Assembly: GCA_965285935.1 (NCBI GenBank)
Contig: OZ260663.1
Span: forward strand, 43,028,001 to 43,092,000
Length of the DNA: 64,000 nucleotides
Origin: Ophelia neglecta
Taxonomy: Eukaryota
Direction: 5' to 3'
The translations under genes and the position numbers were made by a program. Shown here piece by piece: positions 3,729-63,889 of the stretch. The notes under the pieces are model-generated. The model made no database searches and had not been told where the DNA came from. It worked only from the letters and a program-made list of their open reading frames with translations. Every line of letters begins with the position of its first letter. The first letter of the stretch is position 1.

Positions 3729-4907
3729 ATGGATGACAATGAAACTGACATGTTTTGCGAGGACATAGTTTCATACTTGAGGGATGAAAGCTTCGGTTTC
3801 GGCAATAACCAGTCTAATAACCGCACGGCGTACAATGGGATGATGGCAAACCGTAGTGTCGACTACAGCGACACGATGGAAGATGTAAAATACTATCTAA
3901 AGGGCATCGTGAACCCATCCCTCTGTGTGTTCGGCTTCATCGGCAACGTCTTAAATGTAATTATTTTGACGCGCAGACGGATGAAGAGTTCCATGGAATG
4001 CAGCATGGAGCGTTCGGCCCAAACCGGTCTCATCGCTCTGGCTCTGTCAGACATGCTCTACTGCACAGCCACGTTTTTCGGTGGATTATGGGGTCGTCAA
4101 CAAACTATGTTCCAAGGTAGAAGCCTGTGGTTGTATATTCAAATCTACGAGAAAGGATTCCAGAACATTTTCATGAACACAAGCACATGGTTGACAGTCA
4201 TGATGGCCGCGGGAAGATACGCCGCCATATGTCGTCCACTGCATGCTCGATATTTAGTTGAGCTGAAAGCCACCAGGATCGCCATTTGTGCCATATTTGT
4301 TTTCTGGGTCCTAATCAATCTACCACAGTTTTGGGAGTATTCTGTCCTTGCCATTCACTGCCCGGGACGTGGCTCCATCTACGTCATCGACCAGGGTACT
4401 TTCCCCATGAATACTACTCTGAAAACGGTATTCATCTACATCTGGTCTGTCCTCGGTTTCTTTGTCCCCGTTATCATACTCGCCTATTGTAATGTTCATC
4501 TTATTAAAGCATTGAGGGATTCTATCAAAATGAGGCGTTTGTACCGCGTCCACCAGAACAAATCTCCTAACTACGGGTCAAAGATTACGCCAACCCTCGT
4601 GGCCATAGTCTGTGGGTTTTTTGTTCTTGTCTCTCCATCTGAAGTCTTACATTTTTATTATTACGCCATCAAGTCTGACAGCGTGGAATCCTTTAACATG
4701 GGAATAGTTATCACCAATGTGTTACAGACCATTAATTTTGCGTGTAATTTCATTTTATATTGCATAGTGAATGTTCATTTTCGAGAAACCTGGAAAGACG
4801 TCGTGTATTGTAAATGGCGCAAAAGGAAATCTTTCAAATGGCGCGCTGGGTCATCTAACAGCATGAAAGGGACCTATGTGACGTCCAGCGCAGAGACTAA
4901 CATATGA
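3729..4907 (+). CDS. Class A (rhodopsin-like) GPCR, FMRFamide/sex-peptide receptor-like (Srw-like) group, 392 aa, intronless CDS
   Basis: Seven hydrophobic segments: TM1 GFIGNVLNVIIL, TM2 LALSD, TM3 STWLTVMMAAGRYAAICRPL, TM4 W..NLP, TM5 FFVP..LAYCN, TM6 F..LVSP, TM7 NFACNFILYC, then helix 8 FRETW. N-terminal N-glycosylation sequons NET, NQS, NRT, NRS. The ORF-track start at 3708 is a TTG inside a splice acceptor (ttattctttgcag, AG 3712-3713). The first ATG is at 3729. Confidence 0.93.
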   Translation: MDDNETDMFCEDIVSYLRDESFGFGNNQSNNRTAYNGMMANRSVDYSDTMEDVKYYLKGIVNPSLCVFGFIGNVLNVIILTRRRMKSSMECSMERSAQTGLIALALSDMLYCTATFFGGLWGRQQTMFQGRSLWLYIQIYEKGFQNIFMNTSTWLTVMMAAGRYAAICRPLHARYLVELKATRIAICAIFVFWVLINLPQFWEYSVLAIHCPGRGSIYVIDQGTFPMNTTLKTVFIYIWSVLGFFVPVIILAYCNVHLIKALRDSIKMRRLYRVHQNKSPNYGSKITPTLVAIVCGFFVLVSPSEVLHFYYYAIKSDSVESFNMGIVITNVLQTINFACNFILYCIVNVHFRETWKDVVYCKWRKRKSFKWRAGSSNSMKGTYVTSSAETNI

Positions 4908-52048: not shown

Positions 52049-54453
52049 CTATAATCTAATTGGTCCACTCATGATGATATTGTCTGAGATGTCGGATTCA
52101 TTGACAATCACTCGTGGATACTCCGGGGAGCTCACAGAATCTACTGACATCTCTTCATACGCCGAGTCAGTAACAGATCTACCACTAGATATCACATCGC
52201 TATTCGAGCAGTCCCCGAGCAAGGTTTTTCCTATTCCGAAATCTGGGTCCTCGTTCGAATTGTAATACGGTCTCTTGGGAACTGCTTGCCCGAGCGCAGT
52301 AATTTTGTCAAATGGATCTGGCAGCTTGATCACTACACAATTGCTTTCAACACTCGAGAATGAACATTGGCTTGAAGTTCGCCTGTGAGATGCTTCACCA
52401 TTAAGCGAGTTGCCCTCCCTGCTCTCGTGGTCACTTTTGGTCAGTGTCGACCAATGCGAAGACATGCTGTTCAGCGTCCCAAACGAGTCGTCTGCCTCGT
52501 ATCCTTCATTGCTCACGCCATCTGTCGGGGTCCTGGATGCTCCTGCCGAGCGCGAACGCCGCGATGACACTGAGGTTGTGTCAGACCTCCTCGGAGAGTT
52601 CAGGCCAGCCTGATACAAGGAGTCTTTAGGGGCTACAGATGAATGTTTCTGTCCGGAACTGTCTGACTTATCTGATGGACGCCGGGAAGCCTTGGTACTT
52701 ACTGCAGGAAAAATATAGACAGTTTATTTGCCGCAGCATTTATTTTGTCAGTTTTTCTATTATAGAATACATAATTATTCTAATTGACTTATACAGAAGT
52801 ATTAAAATATTTATTAGTGGATTTTAGTTGATCGAAGCAAATAATATTAGGGGTGTTTAAGAGTTCATTTTAATGCTGTGAATTCGTTGACCTGAAGAAG
52901 GTTCTATGTTGAAAGAAGTTTAAAAAAATGTTATGGCCGGAAGCATTTTTAACGTAAATATACATAGTTTTATTTTGACTTGCCTGAAGTAGTTTTGTTT
53001 TTGAACAGGGTCTTATAACAGTGAACGGCCATTTTAAAAGTTACAGCAAAGTCCAACAGAGCAGTGACAAGTAGTATTGCGTGTACTATCAAGAGTGGGC
53101 GACTCTGTTCGAAGAAAAAAAGGCCATCATTTCATTCAATGTAAACAAATTGCTTCAAGAAATCTTTAAGGTAGAATATTTCCAAGTGTGATAAATGACT
53201 TACATTCCTGGGGTCTTATTTACATTGAAAAAAAATGATACATTATGTTTACAAATATCAAATAATGTTTATAAACGCTTGTTAACTTACCATGGAACAA
53301 GTGGTATCTGTCGGATCTTCGTTATTACACGAGTATCTTTTAGATTCATTTATGAAGAACAAACCAATACAACTCATAACGAACAAACATACACAGAACA
53401 AGCCACATGACAACCCAGATAATATCAAATTGCCATTTATCTGAAGAAAAAATAAACAGAAAATCTAAGTTGTGATTTCATTAACGTTATATGCACTTTC
53501 TTTTTACAGTATCGATCCTACTTTATATACAATTTCCCTTTTTGAAGGGCAACTACCTTTTCCTGAACAATAAAGATATAAAACGCACTGGCCCATGAAA
53601 ACAGAAATACTGAATACTTAAATATTTGTTAATCATTACACAATTCGGTAGGTAAGCGGCAGATGAGCTTACCATTTTGCGGGTTTTGTATCTTGCGCTG
53701 AGTAAACACACAACTCCAGTCATAACAAACTGAAAAAGTAAACAAAACAATATTCAAAATGCTCCGTGTTTGCTTTTACTAATTTATATTTCTATTCTTT
53801 AAAGGAAAAGTTGTTGTAAAAAGAGCAAAAAATGGTCCAGACCATAAAAAATTACATACAAATGCACCGCACCAAATCCCCGTTGCGAAGTAATTGTATC
53901 CATCCTCCTTATATTCAGTTGGTTCACTAAATCGAATAGCCACAGCCTGACACGCCACCGCCGCAGTCCCGAGCCCGATTTGACCGACACCGGACCAGCG
54001 TGCAGTCTGTCCTTCATAGTTCGGGTAAAATGTTTGCGGAGACTGAGGCGATGGCTCGATAATTTTAGTCTGATCACATGCATGTACACCGAAGTCTGCC
54101 AAGTCTGAAATTTCGTCTTGTGGTAAGACTAGAATGTTTGTCGGTATATCAGGTGAACTGTCCGCTAAGCCATCTCGATGGTCTTGCAATGCGAGGTCTT
54201 TTGATGAAGAAGTTTCTAGTATGTGGTTTGATTTGATCTCATTTGCGTGGGATGAAATTATGTACAGCGTCTCTGAATTCCCACCTGTATGTTTTGTGTA
54301 CCTGGTCGGTTCTGTAGAAAGGAATGATTCACCGGTAATCTTTGACATTTCAATGCGGTCTTTCGATCGGGCTTTGCATTCTTTAAGTGATTCGTTTCCC
54401 GAGTCACATGAATGTTTTCTGGTAACAATCCTTTGGTTCTCCGTAGATGCCAT
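52049..54453 (-). CDS. MS4A/CD20-like four-TM protein, paralog A, 5 coding exons, 524 aa, long Ser/acidic C-tail
   Basis: Exons 54453-53860, 53729-53673, 53440-53291, 53104-52984, 52701-52049 (1575 nt, open throughout). Donors GTATGT, GTAAGC, GTAAGT, GCAAGT; pyrimidine-rich CAG acceptors. TM1 GVGQIGLG, TM2 ATGIWCGAFFVMTG, TM3 LILSGLSCGLFCVCLFVMSCIG, loop with two Cys, TM4 LLIVHAILLVTALLDF. In-frame stop at 54481-54483 upstream of the ATG. AATAAA at 52010-52005. Confidence 0.85.
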
Positions 54454-56775
54454 TTGAATGTATGAGTAAGGTCCTCGGGTTCAAGTCCTGTGGCCCATTC
54501 CATATAGATCTACCTCGCCTAAAAATGTACCAAAAGTTCATTTTAGGAGAGATAGGCTTAGTGCAGGCATTCAAAGCTACTGAATGTGTTTTGTCAAGCT
54601 GAAAATATGACCTGATTCTATATACCTTTCGAACAAAACGTAGGCCAGTGGGGGTAAATAAATTTACATGTACATACACTATGTACTCTCCCACTATGAT
54701 ATACCAGACATACGCGATTGTTATGAATGACGAACAGTGTATTAGTGGATAATTCCAGTGCACACAGTAAAACTGTACAGACATAAAGACATAATGTATA
54801 CTTATACTGTGTGCTGTGGCATCATGCCAAATATTATATAACTATTAAAGTGGTTCAAATATTGTTAACATTTTAAAATTTAAGGGCCAGTATTTTAAAA
54901 ATTCGCGTAAAAAGCTAACGTTTAACTTCGCCAATAAATACTCTTATAGTATTATTCATTTAGTTTGTATACGCTTCAGCAAAGCAAAGGGCGAGTTTAT
55001 AAAGTATGATATCAACACTTGTACCACTCGTATGTATATTAATTCAGACGTTAAAGTACTTGCCACCTTTAAGTTTCAACGATAACTGGTGGTTTACTGT
55101 TATCTACTGAAGGAACAATATAACTCACCTGTGCTTGAGAACTGCCCCTGACTACCTGTTGAACAATCGGCCTCTTCGACCTACCGGTTTCAGCGCTGCT
55201 ACCTAACTGCCAACAGGACAATGTTCCCAGATTCAACATATAGGTATGTAAATGCCTTAAAGCACCGTCCTCGAGATTCACCAAGCGTGACGTTTACATT
55301 AAAGCAGTTTAACACCTACCTGACATACCGTAGTCACCATTTTAGAATTATAACTATGTCAGGGGGAGTAAACCATTGACTGTCGTCCTCGGCGGTTAAT
55401 ACAATGTACATGTAAATACCGGTATACATGCATATGCTTCACTTCATATTCAATTGTAAGCAGCAAACAACATTTTTAAACACTTGGACGGTTGAAGTTG
55501 AACTCTTAATGGTTTTCTCTACTCGGGGCTCACCTGTTGCCCGTATAGCGTAGCTTGTTTAAAAGTTCCGGAAGAACAGTTATCAATGCGAATTCTATGA
55601 CCCTTGGTAATTATAGGAATGTGTTTATTATATGACAGTGCGTGTTTTCAAGAGACTACATAATAACACAGCGCTGACGATAGAAAGGGGTTTTAGAACT
55701 ATAAGTGCAATAACACAATCACTGACTTCACATGGGTCTGCCTTATAAATCTAGATTTCTTAACAAATAGAGCTCTACTTATATAGAAAAACGGCGCTTT
55801 AAATCAACAATTCAAAGAACAAGTTTTTGGATTTTTATTTATTTATCTAGAGGCATCTTTAAGTCAATATCACTCTGTGTTGATGTAGCCATCTGGTATA
55901 CTTTATATCAAATGGTAGTCTCCTTTGCTAATTTGTTCGCGGTATACACAAAACACGAGCTTTGAAGGCCAGGGTGACGATACACAGTTGTTATTATGCA
56001 CAGACAAAGTCGCATTTTTTAATTCTCCTGCAGTGATTGTAGATAATGTTAAAGATTAGTCCACTACAAACTGATAATGTTTGAATAAATGAATAATATA
56101 CACAATAATGTACCTGCAGTCAAGTATAAGGCTACAAATATTTTAATACTAGGTAAATTGATTACACTGGTAGAATCCACTGCTGATGTACCCGCAAAAG
56201 TAAAGACGACTGAAATCTATAGGAATGGAGATAACCGTAGAACCATAAAAGAAACTGGATTTTACTGGTCTGGGAGATACCCCATAAGTTCTGCAGAGGA
56301 ACGCTTTTGTAGGAACCACCCAAAGGAAGAGTAAACTGATGTATTATATTATATTTTATGATGATTGAAATCGAGGCAGGATATATTTAGGCTTTGCCAC
56401 ATAGGCCTATTTAAACCTATCACGGAAATTCAAATCCACCATTTTAGTTTTTTTGTATTGAAAATTTAAAGGTGTTTGTTGACTTGGCTGGGGCGACTTT
56501 ATCAATTGTGCTACCTCCCCAACACCACTGAAAATAATACATTTTCTATAGCGGTGTAATCTTTACGATTATCTATAATCACTGTGGGAAAATAAAGAAG
56601 TATAAGTTTATATGTGCATTAAGGTGTTGAGATGTATCACTATGGTATAAGTCGCCTATGGGCTAGGTGGTGGTACAGCAAGGGATACGGGTTTTTGCCC
56701 CAGCAAATTCAACAAACGCCTTTGAATATTATATCATATTGTTTTTATATTATATTATACATCAGATTATGTAAA

Positions 56776-59039
56776 TTACAGGTAAGTAGACATGACGTCA
56801 TCAACTGGTACTATTGGGGGATCTTCATCGGCTGAGTATCCCAAAGATAGTCCTGACTGATTAGCTAAAGACGCTGACGGTTGAGGACAAGTTGTGAATT
56901 GCTTGCAATAATTTTCATTTAATGCGAGTTCAACCTCTGTTGATGTGTCAACATTCCTATAAGAAGATAAATATTTCGGAGGCTGTTCTTGGTACGGCGG
57001 AGGAAGAGCCGCCTGCCCTGTCTCATCCACAGCATACGGCGGTGGCTTTAAGACTGCTGAAAGTGTTAACAAACAAGTTAAATTATTATATATTTTAAAT
57101 CGTATAATTGATAGAATTTTGATTTTGAAGAAAGGAATACACAAAATCTGTGTAATAAAGTGCTGTACGCGCAGTGAAAAGTATACATTAAAAACAAGAA
57201 TAAACCTCGAGTTTGCATTGGAAACAGAATCTCTCTATTTTTCACTCTGATAAAAAACGTTTTATAGGGGTTTTGTTGCGATGACGATCTTCGATTGTAA
57301 TCTGGGCCTTTGTTGAAAACTACCAGATGACCTGAATAAAAAGAATCAAAATGTATATTAACATTTTACCGGATTGAATAAACTATGTCGATTTTTAACG
57401 CCATTTTCATTAATCAGCAAACCCTAATTTGTCAGAAGTTGAACAAAATGTGGTCAGCGAGGCCTAACAAAAATTAATATTTAATTTACAGATACCTTCT
57501 GGGGTCCGGACACACTGAAGCTGATCTCTTGTTCTTCCTAATACAGTTTTGAAGCACTGAATTGCGACATTTACACAGAGTACAAACTCCATGATGGATG
57601 ACACGAGCATTGCGACATTCACTATCAATAACGGTCGGCTCTGAACATATTAAATAAAGTAATTGATGTCTCAGTATCTGTCTGGACTAGTCAGTAGTGT
57701 ATTTCAGGTCTGTTGTCAATAAAGGCTACCTCTTTATACCAAATATAAACACTGCAAATATTACTTGAAGTACCTACTTTTAATTCCCCTTTTTAATTTG
57801 AAATTGCCAACACAAGATAACAAATACGCCCTTTGAATATAAACACGAATATTTAAACTAATCTTCAACCATGCATTACACAAATAAACTTGATGACTTG
57901 TTACACATATAATGACATAAATGAACTACAACTACTCCTGCCAGTACTTAATTTAAACATATGCATTTCGTACATGCGATGTTCTAATTGGCTATCGGCC
58001 ATAATTAGAAAAATAGTGATTTAGTTCAAAATAGATATTTGCGAAACATCCCATTACTTACGACTGGACAGGTCCTGTATATCCTGTTAGGGCCTTTTAT
58101 GAAACGACATGGGTACCTGTCAGAATTGTCCGATAGACCAATACAGCTCATGACGAATAGATACACACAAAACAGCCCACATGTTATCAAGGAGATAACA
58201 GCAGTCGCTTTTATCTGCAAACACATGTTGGTACTTAGCTGGGCACTGGTCATTTTGAGGTTTTATTTAATGTTTAGGAGCGCTCCACCCGCTGCGAATG
58301 TACTTACCACATTCCTAGTTCGGAACTTTGAAGATACTATTGCAGCAAAACCGCTTAGCATAAACTGGAAACAAAACTAGAAGATATTTAAGATATTATC
58401 GTAACGTTTTTGTCACACGGTGCCAGGATCAGTGGGGCAAAAATTTGTATCCATGAATCACAAAAATATAACAGAAAATGCTTAAATGAACTATTTATGA
58501 AAATTTATATCGGTTGACGAACATAGCCTTAATTTTGAACTTACGAAAGCACCACAGTAGATTCCTGCCGAGATAAAGTTGCGAGAATCATGGGGGAAAG
58601 TCTGTGTATCACTCAATACAATAGCTACTGTCTGGCATATCGCACACATAACGCCGACCATGATCTGAGCAACCCCGACTAGCAGAGGTTTCATTGTCGG
58701 GTAACTCTCGTACAATGTGGGAGCAGGGGGGCTGGGGGGAGGATCATCCGTCAGAGAATGGTCTCCTACCATCGCCTCAAGACTGGGCAGATCTTGTAAA
58801 TTGTTTGGAATCATTTCAATGTCCGTAGGAAGTCCGCACGTGCTTTGATCTGGACCGAAAATTTCTCTAGTGGTGTCAGCTTCAGACACCTCATCATTAA
58901 TTACATTGCCAGCAACAGTCCCAGGAACTAAATCGGGTGTCGACCGATGAACCTGCTCCTCTGGTGCTGCATCATTTTCCTGACCTTCCTGCCTATCGTC
59001 TTTATCTGGACCATTATGTCCAGAGTTCCCGGAGGTCAT
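56776..59039 (-). CDS. MS4A/CD20-like four-TM protein, paralog B, 6 coding exons, ~418 aa, three PPxY motifs
   Basis: Exons 59039-58545, 58364-58308, 58214-58062, 57640-57496, 57331-57206, 57056-56776 (1257 nt, open). Intron positions and phases match paralog A (57-nt exon 2 in both). GVAQIMVG, SAGIYCGAFFMLSG, CGLFCVYLFVMSCIG, SRPLLIV. Tail KPPPY..LPPPY..PPKY, ends STYL. The last acceptor is a CAGCAG tandem. Confidence 0.87.
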
Positions 59040-59212
59040 GATTGAAGTAACGTTAAAAGAGAATGTTCGGTCAGTATGCTAGGCGCAATGATTCTCTCGT
59101 AAACAACATTCTTAAGGCAACACAATGTTAAATGGTCACACCATCACGTAGGACCATTTTAATCACATCTAAACACTGGCTGCATGAAGGCGTACCGGAG
59201 AAGGATGCACAC

Positions 59213-59250
59213 TTCTTATACCTCTAGATAAGTGTTAACAACCTTATCTA
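59213..59250 (-). promoter_or_regulatory. Candidate core promoter of paralog B: inverted GATA pair plus TATA-like box
   Basis: TAGATAAG (59225-59232) and CTTATCTA (59243-59250) form a perfect inverted pair, immediately upstream of TATAAGAA (- strand, 59220-59213) and ~175 bp before the ATG. Confidence 0.4.
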
Positions 59251-62200
59251 ACGCTCCAAATTACTGTATAATAGATTTAATAAGCACATATGATACATGT
59301 GAGATTTTTAAATACATTCCCAGATTTAATCAAAGATTACAGATAATCATATAGAATAACAAACATACAGCCATGTCTCCGGGTAGATAAGTACAAGAGT
59401 ACTGTTTGGAGCCTCGTGTACTTTCTTTGCATCTTCCATATTCAAATCAAAATGGAAAAGTCTCAACAAACGGCGTATCGTGTTCAAATTTACTTTATAC
59501 TTACTGTAAGCGACCTTCGTGGTGGACAACACTGTGTTTGGCTGGAAGTGTTGGTAGCTCGCCAATGGAATGTTTGGTGTTTGAAATGAATGCCCAGTGT
59601 CATATTCGACGCGACGGATACATTGTTAAAAGCACATATATAACGATTCGTTCACGATAAATAGGCCTATTGGTTATACATGAGAGAATATGAAGTTGGC
59701 CCCAGACCCATACGTGTAGTAGTAATACATACATGTAACAGCCTAAAATCAGTCAACCTTAGAATTGTCAATACGTAGTTATTAAGGTAACCTTACAGGT
59801 AGAACCCTTATATCTTCGAAAAGCAATCGTACAAGCGCTGTGCTCTATTCGTTGACTTTCAAGGAAATGTATTATATTAATTCATCTAGAAGTATGCAAC
59901 ATGGATGGAAATTTCATCACATGATCAGTCAACGTTATAAATTTGACAAGTAGTGGTCCATTTTCCTATTACTGACTACCTTGGCAAAAGGTCTGTAGCT
60001 ATAAAGGTATACCAGAATCATATCAAATCTAATGACCAGTGTTAGCTAGATAGTCTACATTTATAAATACACCGTTCTTTTTTGTGCATCCCAGGAACAA
60101 ACATTTATTCTGCTTTTATATTTTAATAAAACAACATTTTTATATATCCGGTAGCTCCTACCTAGAAGGGGATTGAAGAGGGGGGGGGGGGGGGGGCATA
60201 TTATTTTCATTGAAGCGCAACGTTCGACGTCTGTTGTTTGAAGTTCGGCATCCGGATTCCTTTGTCACGGGAAAAAAAGAAAACCCCTGTATTTTTCTAC
60301 TAGTATATAACATAGATTACTGTCTGATCGCAATCAACAGAACACAGAGGCATTGTTTTCTAAAGCTGATAAGGTAAAAGACAAGCTCCTATGGTTTAAT
60401 TTGTTATTAGAGCTCAAAATTACTTTTGAAAGACTTAAGAATAGTATGGTCCGAATATGACGTTTAAAGATTTGACTTTGGTGTACGTCCTTAAGGTCAT
60501 ATCACCTGCACATTTTATAGATTTCTCAAATTTGACATTGGTTTCCACTTTCAATGTCAAATCAATAAAATGATGAGTGTGGTGTACTTTTACAGCTAAA
60601 TTATCATGCCCTACCATACTTTTGACAGTCAAGTTATCTGCTTATTTGTTCATCTATTCATATTCATTACATTTTCTAATCAATGCGTGCATTCTTTAGA
60701 GCGAAACTTCTTCCAAGTATTCAAACCAGAAACATCAACCCAATAACGAAAGCACCAATGCCATTTGCGTAAATTTAATAACGAGAAGATATGGACACAA
60801 TTTATTTATTTGTCGAACTGTTCATGGTTCCATTGCATGTAACGAAAACCCAGTAGACGACTTCAAAACACTGATCAAGAATAGTCTGTTAAATCGGCCC
60901 GCACTCAATAAATCAATTTCCAGCTTCCAAACAATAAATAAAAATTCCAAGAATAATGATAATATCACTTGTAGTTAGAAGCAGTCAACAGTTCTCCACG
61001 ATGCGAGTTAGCTCACAAAACAAACGAGTCAGTTTTCAATGTAAGACAGAGATGAAATATTTCCCAATAGGGGATATGGTAGAGTAAGCTCTCTCATTAG
61101 ATTTAGATACTATAGAGGAAAGTTTCCCAGTAGACACTAGACCGAAGACGTGTGTAAGAGATCCCCGAATAATGAAGTGGAAAATGGTATCAAATCTCCT
61201 CGATATGACTTTATTACATATACAGAGTGAACCAAGCACGCTTTTATTGCGAATGAAAACGTGGATATGCAACATACGATATTATATCGGTATAAAGCAG
61301 CTGCACATGGCCCCTAGTCGTAGGATGAGCGGAATTGATAAATTAAAGTCATTGCAGTCTTTTCCTGCGTAGGTTTTTAAACAATGGCAACTAGAACCTA
61401 CTAGAGGAGAGTGATCGATCGTATTTTGACAGTCCCCGAGGTTGATTAAATCTTAAAAGGAAAATTTACGATTCTCCTAGGCGAATGTTATATTTAGCTT
61501 GATCGGTGAAATATTTACCCGTGAATTTGAAAAATGCCCGTAATCCTGGGGGTCAAGTTTTTGACAGCAGGGCTACCATTTATACCAGGCAGAATAGCAC
61601 AAGCTCTTACAAGGGAAGCATCAAAGTATACACCCCGCGCTGGGAAATAGGTATTATTGCTATCAAGCAATTGGACGATAACTATTGAAATCATCGATCT
61701 ATTTGACATAAAGTACTGAACTTAGAAGGCATTTTTTGTTAAAATAAATAATAAAAAATCAATTTAGAAGCAGGATATATTTACCCATAATAGGAATTAA
61801 TTTTGGTTCCAAATAATTCCAATTATATACAACCAGTCAGTTGTATCTTTAAGGAAGTTCCATTAATCGTGAATACATCTCATTAACATATTAACTGAAG
61901 TAATTCTTATTGAATGAAAACATCATCATCTAATGAAGAAGAACATTTCTTGGCTATGTGCATCTTCGCACCCTTCAACCAACTAGTAATTAAATCATAT
62001 TTATAAGTGAATTGATACAAATCTGCAGCCAAAGAAGCGCAGTTAGTTCCTTCAAGAATACCAATGAAACAATTCACTACTTTACCCGCAAGGACATGAA
62101 TTTTATCGATGATAAGCGCTTTAGATGTAGTAAACTCGACATAGAGTGTTTGAAAAGAAAGCTGTTCTATTGCTTACATTTATTAAACGTCCTGTTTCAA

Positions 62201-63078
62201 AAAATGTATTTTTCTAGCTATTTCATACGCGACTTAAAATCAGCATGCGGAAGTGTAGCATACAGGGTAGTGAAGTTCTACGAGGAAAGAGACAAGCATT
62301 CAGTTTGACTGAGGTCTTCTTGATGTTGTATCGAGTCTTTGCCGCTTTTATAAATACTCATATGTTAGACTCTAAGTTGCGAAGGACCACAGCGCCATAC
62401 CATTGTTTATATTGTGTATTTTCGGTAGCTAGAATATTCTAGGAAGACCCATACCGGAAGCTATTCTACTGTTGGTTGCGAGGAATCTATGATGACTAGA
62501 AATAATTTCCTGAACTGATGTTTGAAAAACTCATAGGTGGTCATAAACTCAAGGTCGGTATTGCATTTGTTACTTTTAAAGGAAAGGCCCAATGCTTCAG
62601 GCAAAACTGTAAAATGAAAGATTTTACAAATAAGTGCAACATTATATGCTGCTTAAGCATTTGAAACATCGACAAAGTTCTGTGTATGCAATAACACTTT
62701 GGATTTGACGATTAACTTAAAGGGAAGCGATGATAATTCCTTTCGTTTCAATTATCGACGAGACGGTGCATCCTCATTTGAGTGTTGGTAATGATCATAT
62801 CCCAATTCCACTTGATCAACGGTATTTCTCGATATATTTATCGCTCGAGCTCATCTGTAAATTTTTGTATGATATTTCAATGGAATCTATTGCTTCGGTT
62901 AGATAATTGAATTTGACACCGTATCCAAAACATCTAGTGCAGAGGAGTTGACCGGAAATTCAACCGGAAGTTGCCTCGATTTGCAAACATCATTGCTTGC
63001 GGTGCCATGTGCTGGCTGAAAGTCATGACGGGTTCATCAAACCAAACAACTAGCTCTCAGCTATCCTTATCCGATGAC

Positions 63079-63889
63079 TCAGGAGTGGTGATTTGGTTTT
63101 CTGTAGCTAGGTGGCGGTGTTTTGTATTTAGGTGGCGCTGCATGATTTCCCTTTTCATCGGCAGCGTATGGGGGAGGCTTAAAAATGCCTGAAATGAGGA
63201 TACAAAAAAAAGACATTTATGGTCATTTGATATTTAATAGAACAAATAAAAAATATGTAATAAATTGCTTAGGTGGTTGAAAGAAGTACCAAAATCTAAA
63301 TGATATGGTAATACCTTCACTCTGAATAGGACAGGAGAGCATGTCTAACACTGCTTGTGACAGATCGTCCGTGTCCAGTCGATTATTAATACGAGAAGTA
63401 CTACTTGAAAAATCTGGTCCCCTGTTCATGACTACCAGTTCACCTGGAAGCAAGATGGGAGGGCTTTTGAAGCAATAGCTGCAATAAATCTTCCGATTAG
63501 AGTCTTTAAAATGCACGGAATTGTTCATAAATACCTTGCACAATACACCCATTTTGCAGAGTAAAGACAGTTAAAGGTACGCCACTGCTTTGTGGACATC
63601 TCCTAACTATTAGTCGACAGTGATAAATGCGATGCTCCAACAGGCGTACTAGTTGACATGTATAAGCCATGTGCATATCATTGTCGCAATTTTACAAAAC
63701 AAATACTATTTGCCTTTTAAAAGAAAAAAACAGCTTTTGACTACCTTCAGGCGATCTTATATACTGAAGTTCGTCGTTCTTCTTTTCGAGGATGGCTTTG
63801 TAACACTGTACAGCCATCTTGACACTAAGGACTATTTCCATTATAGTTCCGATCAGCATAACTATTTGTGTAATTAACAATGGTCTGCC
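63079..63889 (-). CDS. MS4A/CD20-like paralog C, partial (last three coding exons; 5' part lies beyond the window)
   Basis: Exon 63889-63745 (145 nt, same length as B exon 4; GRPLLITQIVMLIGTIMEIVLSVKMAVQCYKAIL..LQYIRSPE). Exon 63443-63315 (GELVVMNRGPDF.., vs B GHLVVFNKGPDY). Exon 63188-63079 (GIFKPPPYAADEKGNHAAPPKYKTPPPSYRKPNHHS*). Confidence 0.83.

Follow-up and report, generated by a model that had tools for sequence, protein, structure and literature searches.

For the membrane proteins of the MS4A type, known in vertebrates from FceRI-beta (MS4A2) and CD20 (MS4A1; Pfam family PF04103), Zuccolo et al. 2010 (PMC2826416) state that invertebrates lack MS4A-like genes, that invertebrate look-alikes are not MS4A and that the family originated in jawed vertebrates. 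A review (PMC7776563) calls MS4A ancestry poorly known, and a 2022 preprint (10.1101/2022.08.15.492342) reports 29 clustered MS4A genes in Ciona and positive selection in the loops of Botryllus proteins. CD20-related sequence is also present in proteins coupled to ubiquitin ligases. For example, ENTREP (FAM189A2) has a CD20-homologous region and two PPxY (PY) motifs that bind ITCH, is itself ubiquitinated and promotes ubiquitination and uptake of CXCR4 (PMC8811627), while FAM189A1 and FAM189B carry PF04103 (PMC4815072). Among other PY-bearing membrane proteins, NDFIP2 needs three clustered motifs to disinhibit WWP2, whereas TMEM127, with a single motif, binds WWP2 without activating it and needs a partner (PMC12720080). 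Here we describe three neighbouring genes, A, B and C, at one end of a 64,000-nucleotide stretch (hereafter the window) of the genome of the annelid Ophelia neglecta (assembly GCA_965285935.1, contig OZ260663.1, positions 43,028,001 to 43,092,000). With moderate confidence, we regard their products as CD20/MS4A-like membrane partners, two of which, B and C, would use triplets of PPxY motifs to dock a Nedd4-family ligase for ubiquitin-driven uptake.

All three genes lie on the minus strand and have open spliced frames of 524, 418 and 312 amino acids (aa; Table 1). This agrees with an initial annotation of the window, which had proposed same-strand paralogs with shared intron positions: introns 1-3 are of phase 0 and fall at the same places, the second exon always measures 57 nt, and intron 4 is of phase 1. 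Splice sites are canonical except for a GC donor in intron 4 of A, where a GT/AG pair shifted by 4 nt would also keep the frame, and a weak donor after exon 5 of B. Where "at least three" genes had been expected, three are present, and no fourth was found in the window and 119 kb upstream of it (183 kb together). The transmembrane (TM) strings that had been quoted as conserved are likewise there, RPLLI in A, B and C, and CGLFCV/LFVMSCIGL in A and B. No RNA data set was listed for window 56700-59200. Contigs from three read runs of one sample cross the introns, and none of the 15 joints listed (of 29) matches a modelled intron; these runs are possibly the source of the assembly and were not used as support for the gene models.

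Homology points to the CD20/MS4A family, in line with the earlier assignment. A profile of the three exon-1 segments matched 17 proteins among 1.84 billion, including a Ciona protein (P0132, XP_078481376.1); 15 of the matches are relatives, and the remaining two (P0123 and P0124), unrelated long repeat proteins, were dropped. CD20 matches at E < 0.1 occur in 6 of these 15 relatives, of which only P0135 exceeds the Pfam cut-off (30.0 vs 27.9 bits). The top match of P0135 in the PDB is FceRI-beta (E 7.5e-7), and 28 of its 30 matches in the Atlas are CD20 clusters, a database in which echinoderm, chordate and mollusc CD20 clusters are present. On spliced B, A and C, P0135 scores 36.1, 34.1 and 29.9 bits (E 9.5e-10, 3.9e-9 and 7.3e-8), with 3000 shuffles reaching at most 11.8. 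Similarly, an 18-row exon-1 profile that includes A, B and C finds FceRI-beta sequences as its top four PDB matches (E 4.2e-6 to 2e-3). Exon 1 of B alone leads to a CD20-bearing Atlas cluster at 0.91, which, with the family on 16% of the members, is a lead. The trio shares with vertebrate MS4A proteins four TMs, a short first extracellular loop (ECL1), two Cys in the second (ECL2), a G-x-W-x-G motif running into TM2, a basic inner loop and the arrangement in tandem clusters; a short (57-nt) exon ending TM2 is presumably also a vertebrate trait. The relationship is nevertheless distant, no exon passing Pfam by itself, and the tails of B and C bear PPxY motifs in place of the immunoreceptor tyrosine-based activation motif (ITAM) that the FceRI-beta tail carries.

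The family is not confined to this array. Searches with exon peptides gave 35 candidate loci in the genome, which were modelled with a spliced profile aligner that allows phase-0 introns anywhere. Thirty of them stand well above the null (ten that were not used in profile building score 58-147, against 16.8-21.8 in 10 null windows), so that A, B, C and 27 others form a lower bound for the genome; four candidates at null level (17-21) were dropped. A locus at C1:94.63 Mb (score 32.6) was treated as a distant outlier and not counted; in this CD20-clan gene (L046, G000:C1:94.634 Mb, minus strand) the second exon is longer and a Y-P-Y-W-A-G motif is present, and we take it to resemble sarcospan. 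The 57-nt exon recurs in 28 of the 30 models, and A, B and C match a profile built without them at E 1e-22 to 3e-26. A tree was computed from 29 genomic cores and P0135, leaving aside the incomplete locus at C1:33.22 Mb; in it, A, B and C form a clade (99.8/100) on a long stem. The grouping of A with C receives 86/96, yet the approximately unbiased (AU) test rejects none of the three topologies. The trio is thus one old, well-supported branch of a family of about 30 genes. It is marked by the third PPxY motif (B and C), by a conserved R-Y-x-C...C...R-P loop and by an N-terminal motif, and it lacks a Cys cluster that most paralogs have after TM4. The N-terminal motif, GDH...DDPPP ahead of TM1, is common to B, C and P0121, a protein on a short contig with 45% identity to B over 87 residues, which joins A, B and C in a quick tree (support 72); the branch is thus present in another organism. 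With such an exon-1 relative elsewhere and with saturated synonymous sites, the earlier idea of a lineage-specific family does not fit the trio.

Each protein has four hydrophobic segments (TM1 of A is weak, its hydropathy peak reaching only 1.45), a basic TM2-TM3 loop and a basic stretch after TM4, while the first 40 aa are hydrophilic and no signal peptide is predicted. This charge pattern is that of a protein with both termini inside, the topology that we infer for all three. ECL2, encoded in exon 3, keeps two invariant Cys, which may form a disulfide, together with S-x-R-Y-x-C and an R-P before TM4. It had been supposed that the TMs are conserved and ECL2 divergent apart from its two Cys, and that outer loops diversify. 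In the trio, however, ECL2 is about as conserved (11/27, 9/24 and 8/24 identical between pairs, 33-41%) as the TMs (45/97, 45/97 and 35/99, 35-46%), the sole loop that clearly diverges being ECL1 of B (1/12, 2/12). All three pairs have saturated synonymous sites (proportion of synonymous differences, pS, 0.75-0.85), whereas nonsynonymous divergence (dN) is far lower, at 0.52-0.55, which indicates that the duplicates are old and have been under purifying selection. Split by region, dN amounts to 0.44-0.55 in TMs and 0.54-0.79 in loops, a loop/TM ratio of 1.0-1.7. With synonymous divergence (dS) saturated, these values do not show diversifying selection in the trio. These values also bear on the notion that A, B and C are dead copies or artefacts of stitched fragments, which the missing RNA support and the need for one GC and one weak donor might invite; with dN far below the saturated dS, with open frames and with canonical splice sites placed as in 27 other loci, we consider its probability negligible.

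A further interpretation sees the trio as part of a chemosensory repertoire, in which loops diversify for ligands and the PPxY tail serves desensitisation. Ascidian MS4A clusters are also invertebrate, number about 30 genes and show lineage expansions; nine of the 29 Ciona genes are palp-enriched, and positively selected outer-loop sites are described in Botryllus clades (10.1101/2022.08.15.492342). A rhodopsin-type G protein-coupled receptor (GPCR) gene lies 47 kb from the trio, and younger clusters of the same genome display the expected pattern of kept TMs and divergent ECL2: young pairs there have 67-90 of 99 TM residues identical and only 5-12 of 22-28 in ECL2, although the loop models are imperfect. 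Since ECL2 changes fast in those clusters and not in the trio, loop diversification belongs to other branches. The trio is old, without expansion, its ECL2 is about as conserved as its TMs and loop dN exceeds TM dN at most 1.7-fold, unlike the loops that diversify in young ascidian clades, so that we hold a chemosensory role of A, B and C to be quite improbable. The younger clusters (L013-L019, L020-L023, L024 and L033, at C5:33.5, 26.0 and 51.2 Mb), whose fast-changing ECL2 is often Tyr-rich, appear to be better candidates for a diversifying repertoire. Within them, dead copies are suggested by a gene at C5:33.571 Mb that breaks off in TM4 and by an isolated TM4 fragment near 33.560 Mb, and L019 (C5:33.589 Mb) forms with L025 (C1:76.186 Mb) a near-identical pair (dS 0.04), a recent interchromosomal duplication.

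The tails of B and C (100-154 aa, with 7-8 lysines) each contain three PPxY motifs, at residues 330/344/351 and 281/295/302. Their spacing of 14 and 7 residues, previously described as almost equal, is in fact identical; no PPxY or LPxY occurs in the protein of gene A, so the conserved triple-PPxY tail attributed to the array holds for B and C and fails for A. When the tails were shuffled 200,000 times, three or more PPxY came up at frequencies of 9e-5 (B) and 5e-6 (C). Contrary to the description of the surrounding tail as divergent, the PY block is the best-kept region shared by B and C (16/27 identical, spacer included, against 45/97 in the TMs), and exon 5 and the stretch after TM4 can still be aligned (13/43 and 9/20). 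As the spacer residues are kept too and the block is the best conserved, the motifs were selected within a conserved block and not in a divergent tail. Near its end, the single-copy tail of A (52049-52701, minus strand) has Y-E-E-M and Y-P-R-V, possible phosphotyrosine or sorting motifs.

PPxY tails are frequent throughout the family. After TM4, PPxY is found at 18 of the 27 other loci in sense orientation, against 9/27 in antisense (p 0.029) and 18/52 background windows (p 0.009). By eye, it falls into a plausible last exon at 16 of 27, never more than twice per frame, and in one tail, at C5:33.55 Mb, the first and second motifs are 14 residues apart, as in B and C. At C5:51.225 Mb (L024:3920-4550 of G000), the PPPY-bearing end of the last exon is repeated about 7x in tandem past the stop, most copies being self-terminated, which is a possible route to motif multiplication.

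Compared with described proteins, B and C resemble the ENTREP/FAM189 group (FAM189A2, A1 and B) as CD20-domain membrane proteins with cytoplasmic PPxY, of which ENTREP is a binder and activator of ITCH that brings about the uptake of CXCR4. ENTREP, however, is described as crossing the membrane once, and its 343-aa tail carries two motifs separated by 42 residues, whereas in B and C four TMs are followed by three motifs that fit into 25 residues; compared by description, their shorter tails do not reproduce the 28-42-residue PPxY spacing of that group. Clustered cytoplasmic PY motifs, three each in B and C and none in A, also liken the pair to the multi-pass proteins NDFIP1/2, TMEM127 and LAPTM5, among which three motifs suffice for activation and one does not, but the NDFIPs, again compared by description, have three TMs and not four. 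On this likeness, B and C might be dedicated Golgi/endosomal adaptors of the Ndfip/LAPTM5 type that activate a Nedd4-family ligase against other cargo. Three clustered motifs are found in NDFIP2 and LAPTM5 as well (PMC2064599), none of the 27 other loci matches that number in one frame, and the B tail offers YxxPhi-type strings (YKTF, YRNV). These strings are absent from C, though, the scaffold is MS4A-like and not Ndfip-like, and ECL2 keeps its paired Cys and further residues even in the PPxY-free A, a sign of a role at the surface that does not depend on the tail; we therefore judge the adaptor role unlikely, if the most serious of the competitors considered here.

Returning to ligase-driven uptake of MS4A-like partners, the genome contains Nedd4-type ligases, as WW and HECT matches coincide at four places (C5:47.55, C8:29.13, C8:56.65 and C2:98.6 Mb). 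The Nedd4-docking tail proposed at the outset has gained from these genes, at least four with WW and HECT, from the homology and from the conservation of the motifs. If the genes are expressed as we suppose, the triplets of B and C would bind WW domains of a Nedd4-family ubiquitin ligase, the recruited ligase would ubiquitinate B or C and any bound receptor, and the tagged complex would be taken up and sorted to the lysosome. Three clustered motifs might provide the avidity to disinhibit the ligase without help, as in NDFIP2, whereas paralogs with a single PPxY would merely bind; A, whose tail has none, would escape ligase control. The motifs could instead attach a membrane scaffold to a WW protein that is not a ligase, and YAP/Yorkie, WWOX, Kibra, MAGI and dystrophin are, we assume, the candidates. 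Most of the 28 WW matches in the genome are not beside a HECT match, and for FAM189B, a CD20-domain protein, binding to WW domains is described as possible, with reference to a WWOX paper (PMC4815072). Yet membrane proteins with clustered PY motifs such as ENTREP and NDFIP2 work via Nedd4-family ligases and no particular scaffold is indicated, which makes this a very unlikely role.

Several observations weigh against docking of a Nedd4-family ligase by an MS4A-like protein. The Pfam CD20 check suggested in the initial annotation gave a divided answer, with the relative P0135 above the cut-off and no match in any of 10 single-exon pieces of A, B and C; a genome-wide PF04103 search does not list the locus, and family membership passes through one intermediate, P0135. 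Orthologs of B exon 1 were found in 0/353 candidates among longer proteins, a search with the 18-row exon-1 profile recovered three of its own rows and nothing else, and metagenome scans with exon-1 and tail alignments confirmed 0/96 and 0/257 stretches; no ortholog tail was found, so that the evidence for a conserved triplet comes from two paralogs. The gene models are predictions from genomic sequence, and a partner receptor is suggested by analogy with FceRI-beta and ENTREP. The second and third motifs lie 7 residues apart, against 9 in NDFIP2 (Y177/Y186), which leaves simultaneous binding of two WW domains uncertain. Finally, PPxY is also a ligand of WW proteins other than ligases, and the genome encodes many of these.

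A bolder version, which we regard as doubtful, would make B and C stand-alone activators of a Nedd4 ligase on an MS4A scaffold that pass an outer-loop signal or a bound receptor on to the ligase, with A as a ligase-blind tuner in mixed dimers. As an equally doubtful part of this version, an old annelid branch would have raised the usual one or two PPxY to a tight triplet. In neither form is this the undescribed system that had been announced: the same plan recurs at 27 other loci, 16 of which have a PPxY in a plausible last exon, and every ingredient has a published precedent. The trio itself is apparently unreported, its twist being motif number. A literature search found no paper on MS4A genes of annelids or on PPxY motifs in MS4A proteins, a weak negative as its results were crowded by other term pairs, and PPxY is not mentioned in those passages of the ascidian preprint that were looked up for MS4A only.

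Table 1. Positions of the modelled genes, their exons and motif blocks, and of related loci (window positions unless prefixed).
Feature	Position	Strand	Remarks
Gene A, 5 exons, 524 aa	54453-52049	-	modelled from sequence
A exon 1: ATG, long N-tail, TM1, ECL1, TM2 start	53860..54453	-	
A exon 2: 57 nt, phase 0-0, TM2 end and inner loop	53673..53729	-	
A exon 3: TM3, ECL2 with two Cys	53291..53440	-	
A exon 4: TM4, modelled GC donor	52984..53104	-	
A exon 5: 217-codon Ser-rich tail without PPxY	52049..52701	-	50% GC vs 28% in preceding intron
Gene B, 6 exons, 418 aa	59039-56776	-	modelled from sequence
B exon 1: ATG, acidic N-tail, GDH...DDPPP motif, TM1, ECL1, TM2 start	58545..59039	-	
B exon 2: 57 nt	58308..58364	-	
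B exon 3: TM3, ECL2	58062..58214	-	
B exon 4: TM4, post-TM4	57496..57640	-	
B exon 5: 126 nt, weak donor	57206..57331	-	chosen by phase and match to 129-nt exon of C
B exon 6, last exon	56776..57056	-	
B triple PPxY block: PPPY, +14 PPPY, +21 PPKY	56971..57045	-	
Gene C, 6 exons, 312 aa	G000:C5:43093618 to window 63079	-	start 1.6 kb beyond window, exons 1-3 outside
C exons 1-3	G000:C5:43093618-43093280, 43093043-43092987, 43092502-43092344	-	beyond window
C exon 4: TM4	63745..63889	-	
C exon 5: 129 nt	63315..63443	-	
C exon 6, last exon	63079..63188	-	
C triple PPxY block: PPPY, +14 PPKY, +21 PPSY	63103..63177	-	
Locus cluster, 5 members	C5:33.53-33.59 Mb		
Locus cluster, 3 members	C5:25.99-26.01 Mb		
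Locus cluster, 3 members	C5:51.22-51.24 Mb		
Smaller locus groups	C5, C1, C2, C8		

Around the trio, one allele differs at 17 of 272 letters over the start of B exon 1 (window 58827-59098), well above the rest of B, and intergenic high-copy repeats with a depth of up to 20x that of their flanks occupy window 56388-56494 and 60170-62400. The GPCR gene (window 3732-4904, plus strand) encodes an intronless rhodopsin-type receptor of 391 aa (Pfam 7tm_1, 7TM_GPCR_Srw), the best named matches of which are from Capitella (55%) and Paralvinella (54%), in keeping with an annelid host. Two further loci contain frames of mobile-element type, namely an open LINE-type frame of 1226 codons with endonuclease and reverse transcriptase domains (L006:3083-6760, plus strand) and an open frame of 490 codons that resembles a hAT transposase by eye and has no Pfam match at E 0.001 (L012:5143-6612, minus strand).

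MS4A proteins matter as drug targets and as disease genes, and their original function is unclear. The trio is an increment on known themes, but the family of about 30 genes, with one exon plan and mostly PPxY tails, provides a lophotrochozoan case beside the ascidian ones, and its tails suggest that MS4A-type proteins have long been coupled to Nedd4-family ligases. With three, three and no motifs, B, C and A offer a natural comparison for asking whether it is the number of motifs that makes a substrate of the ligase its activator. Should B and C indeed be stand-alone activators, recruiting a ubiquitin ligase would be what MS4A proteins did ancestrally, and ITAM or channel roles would have taken its place later, in vertebrates.

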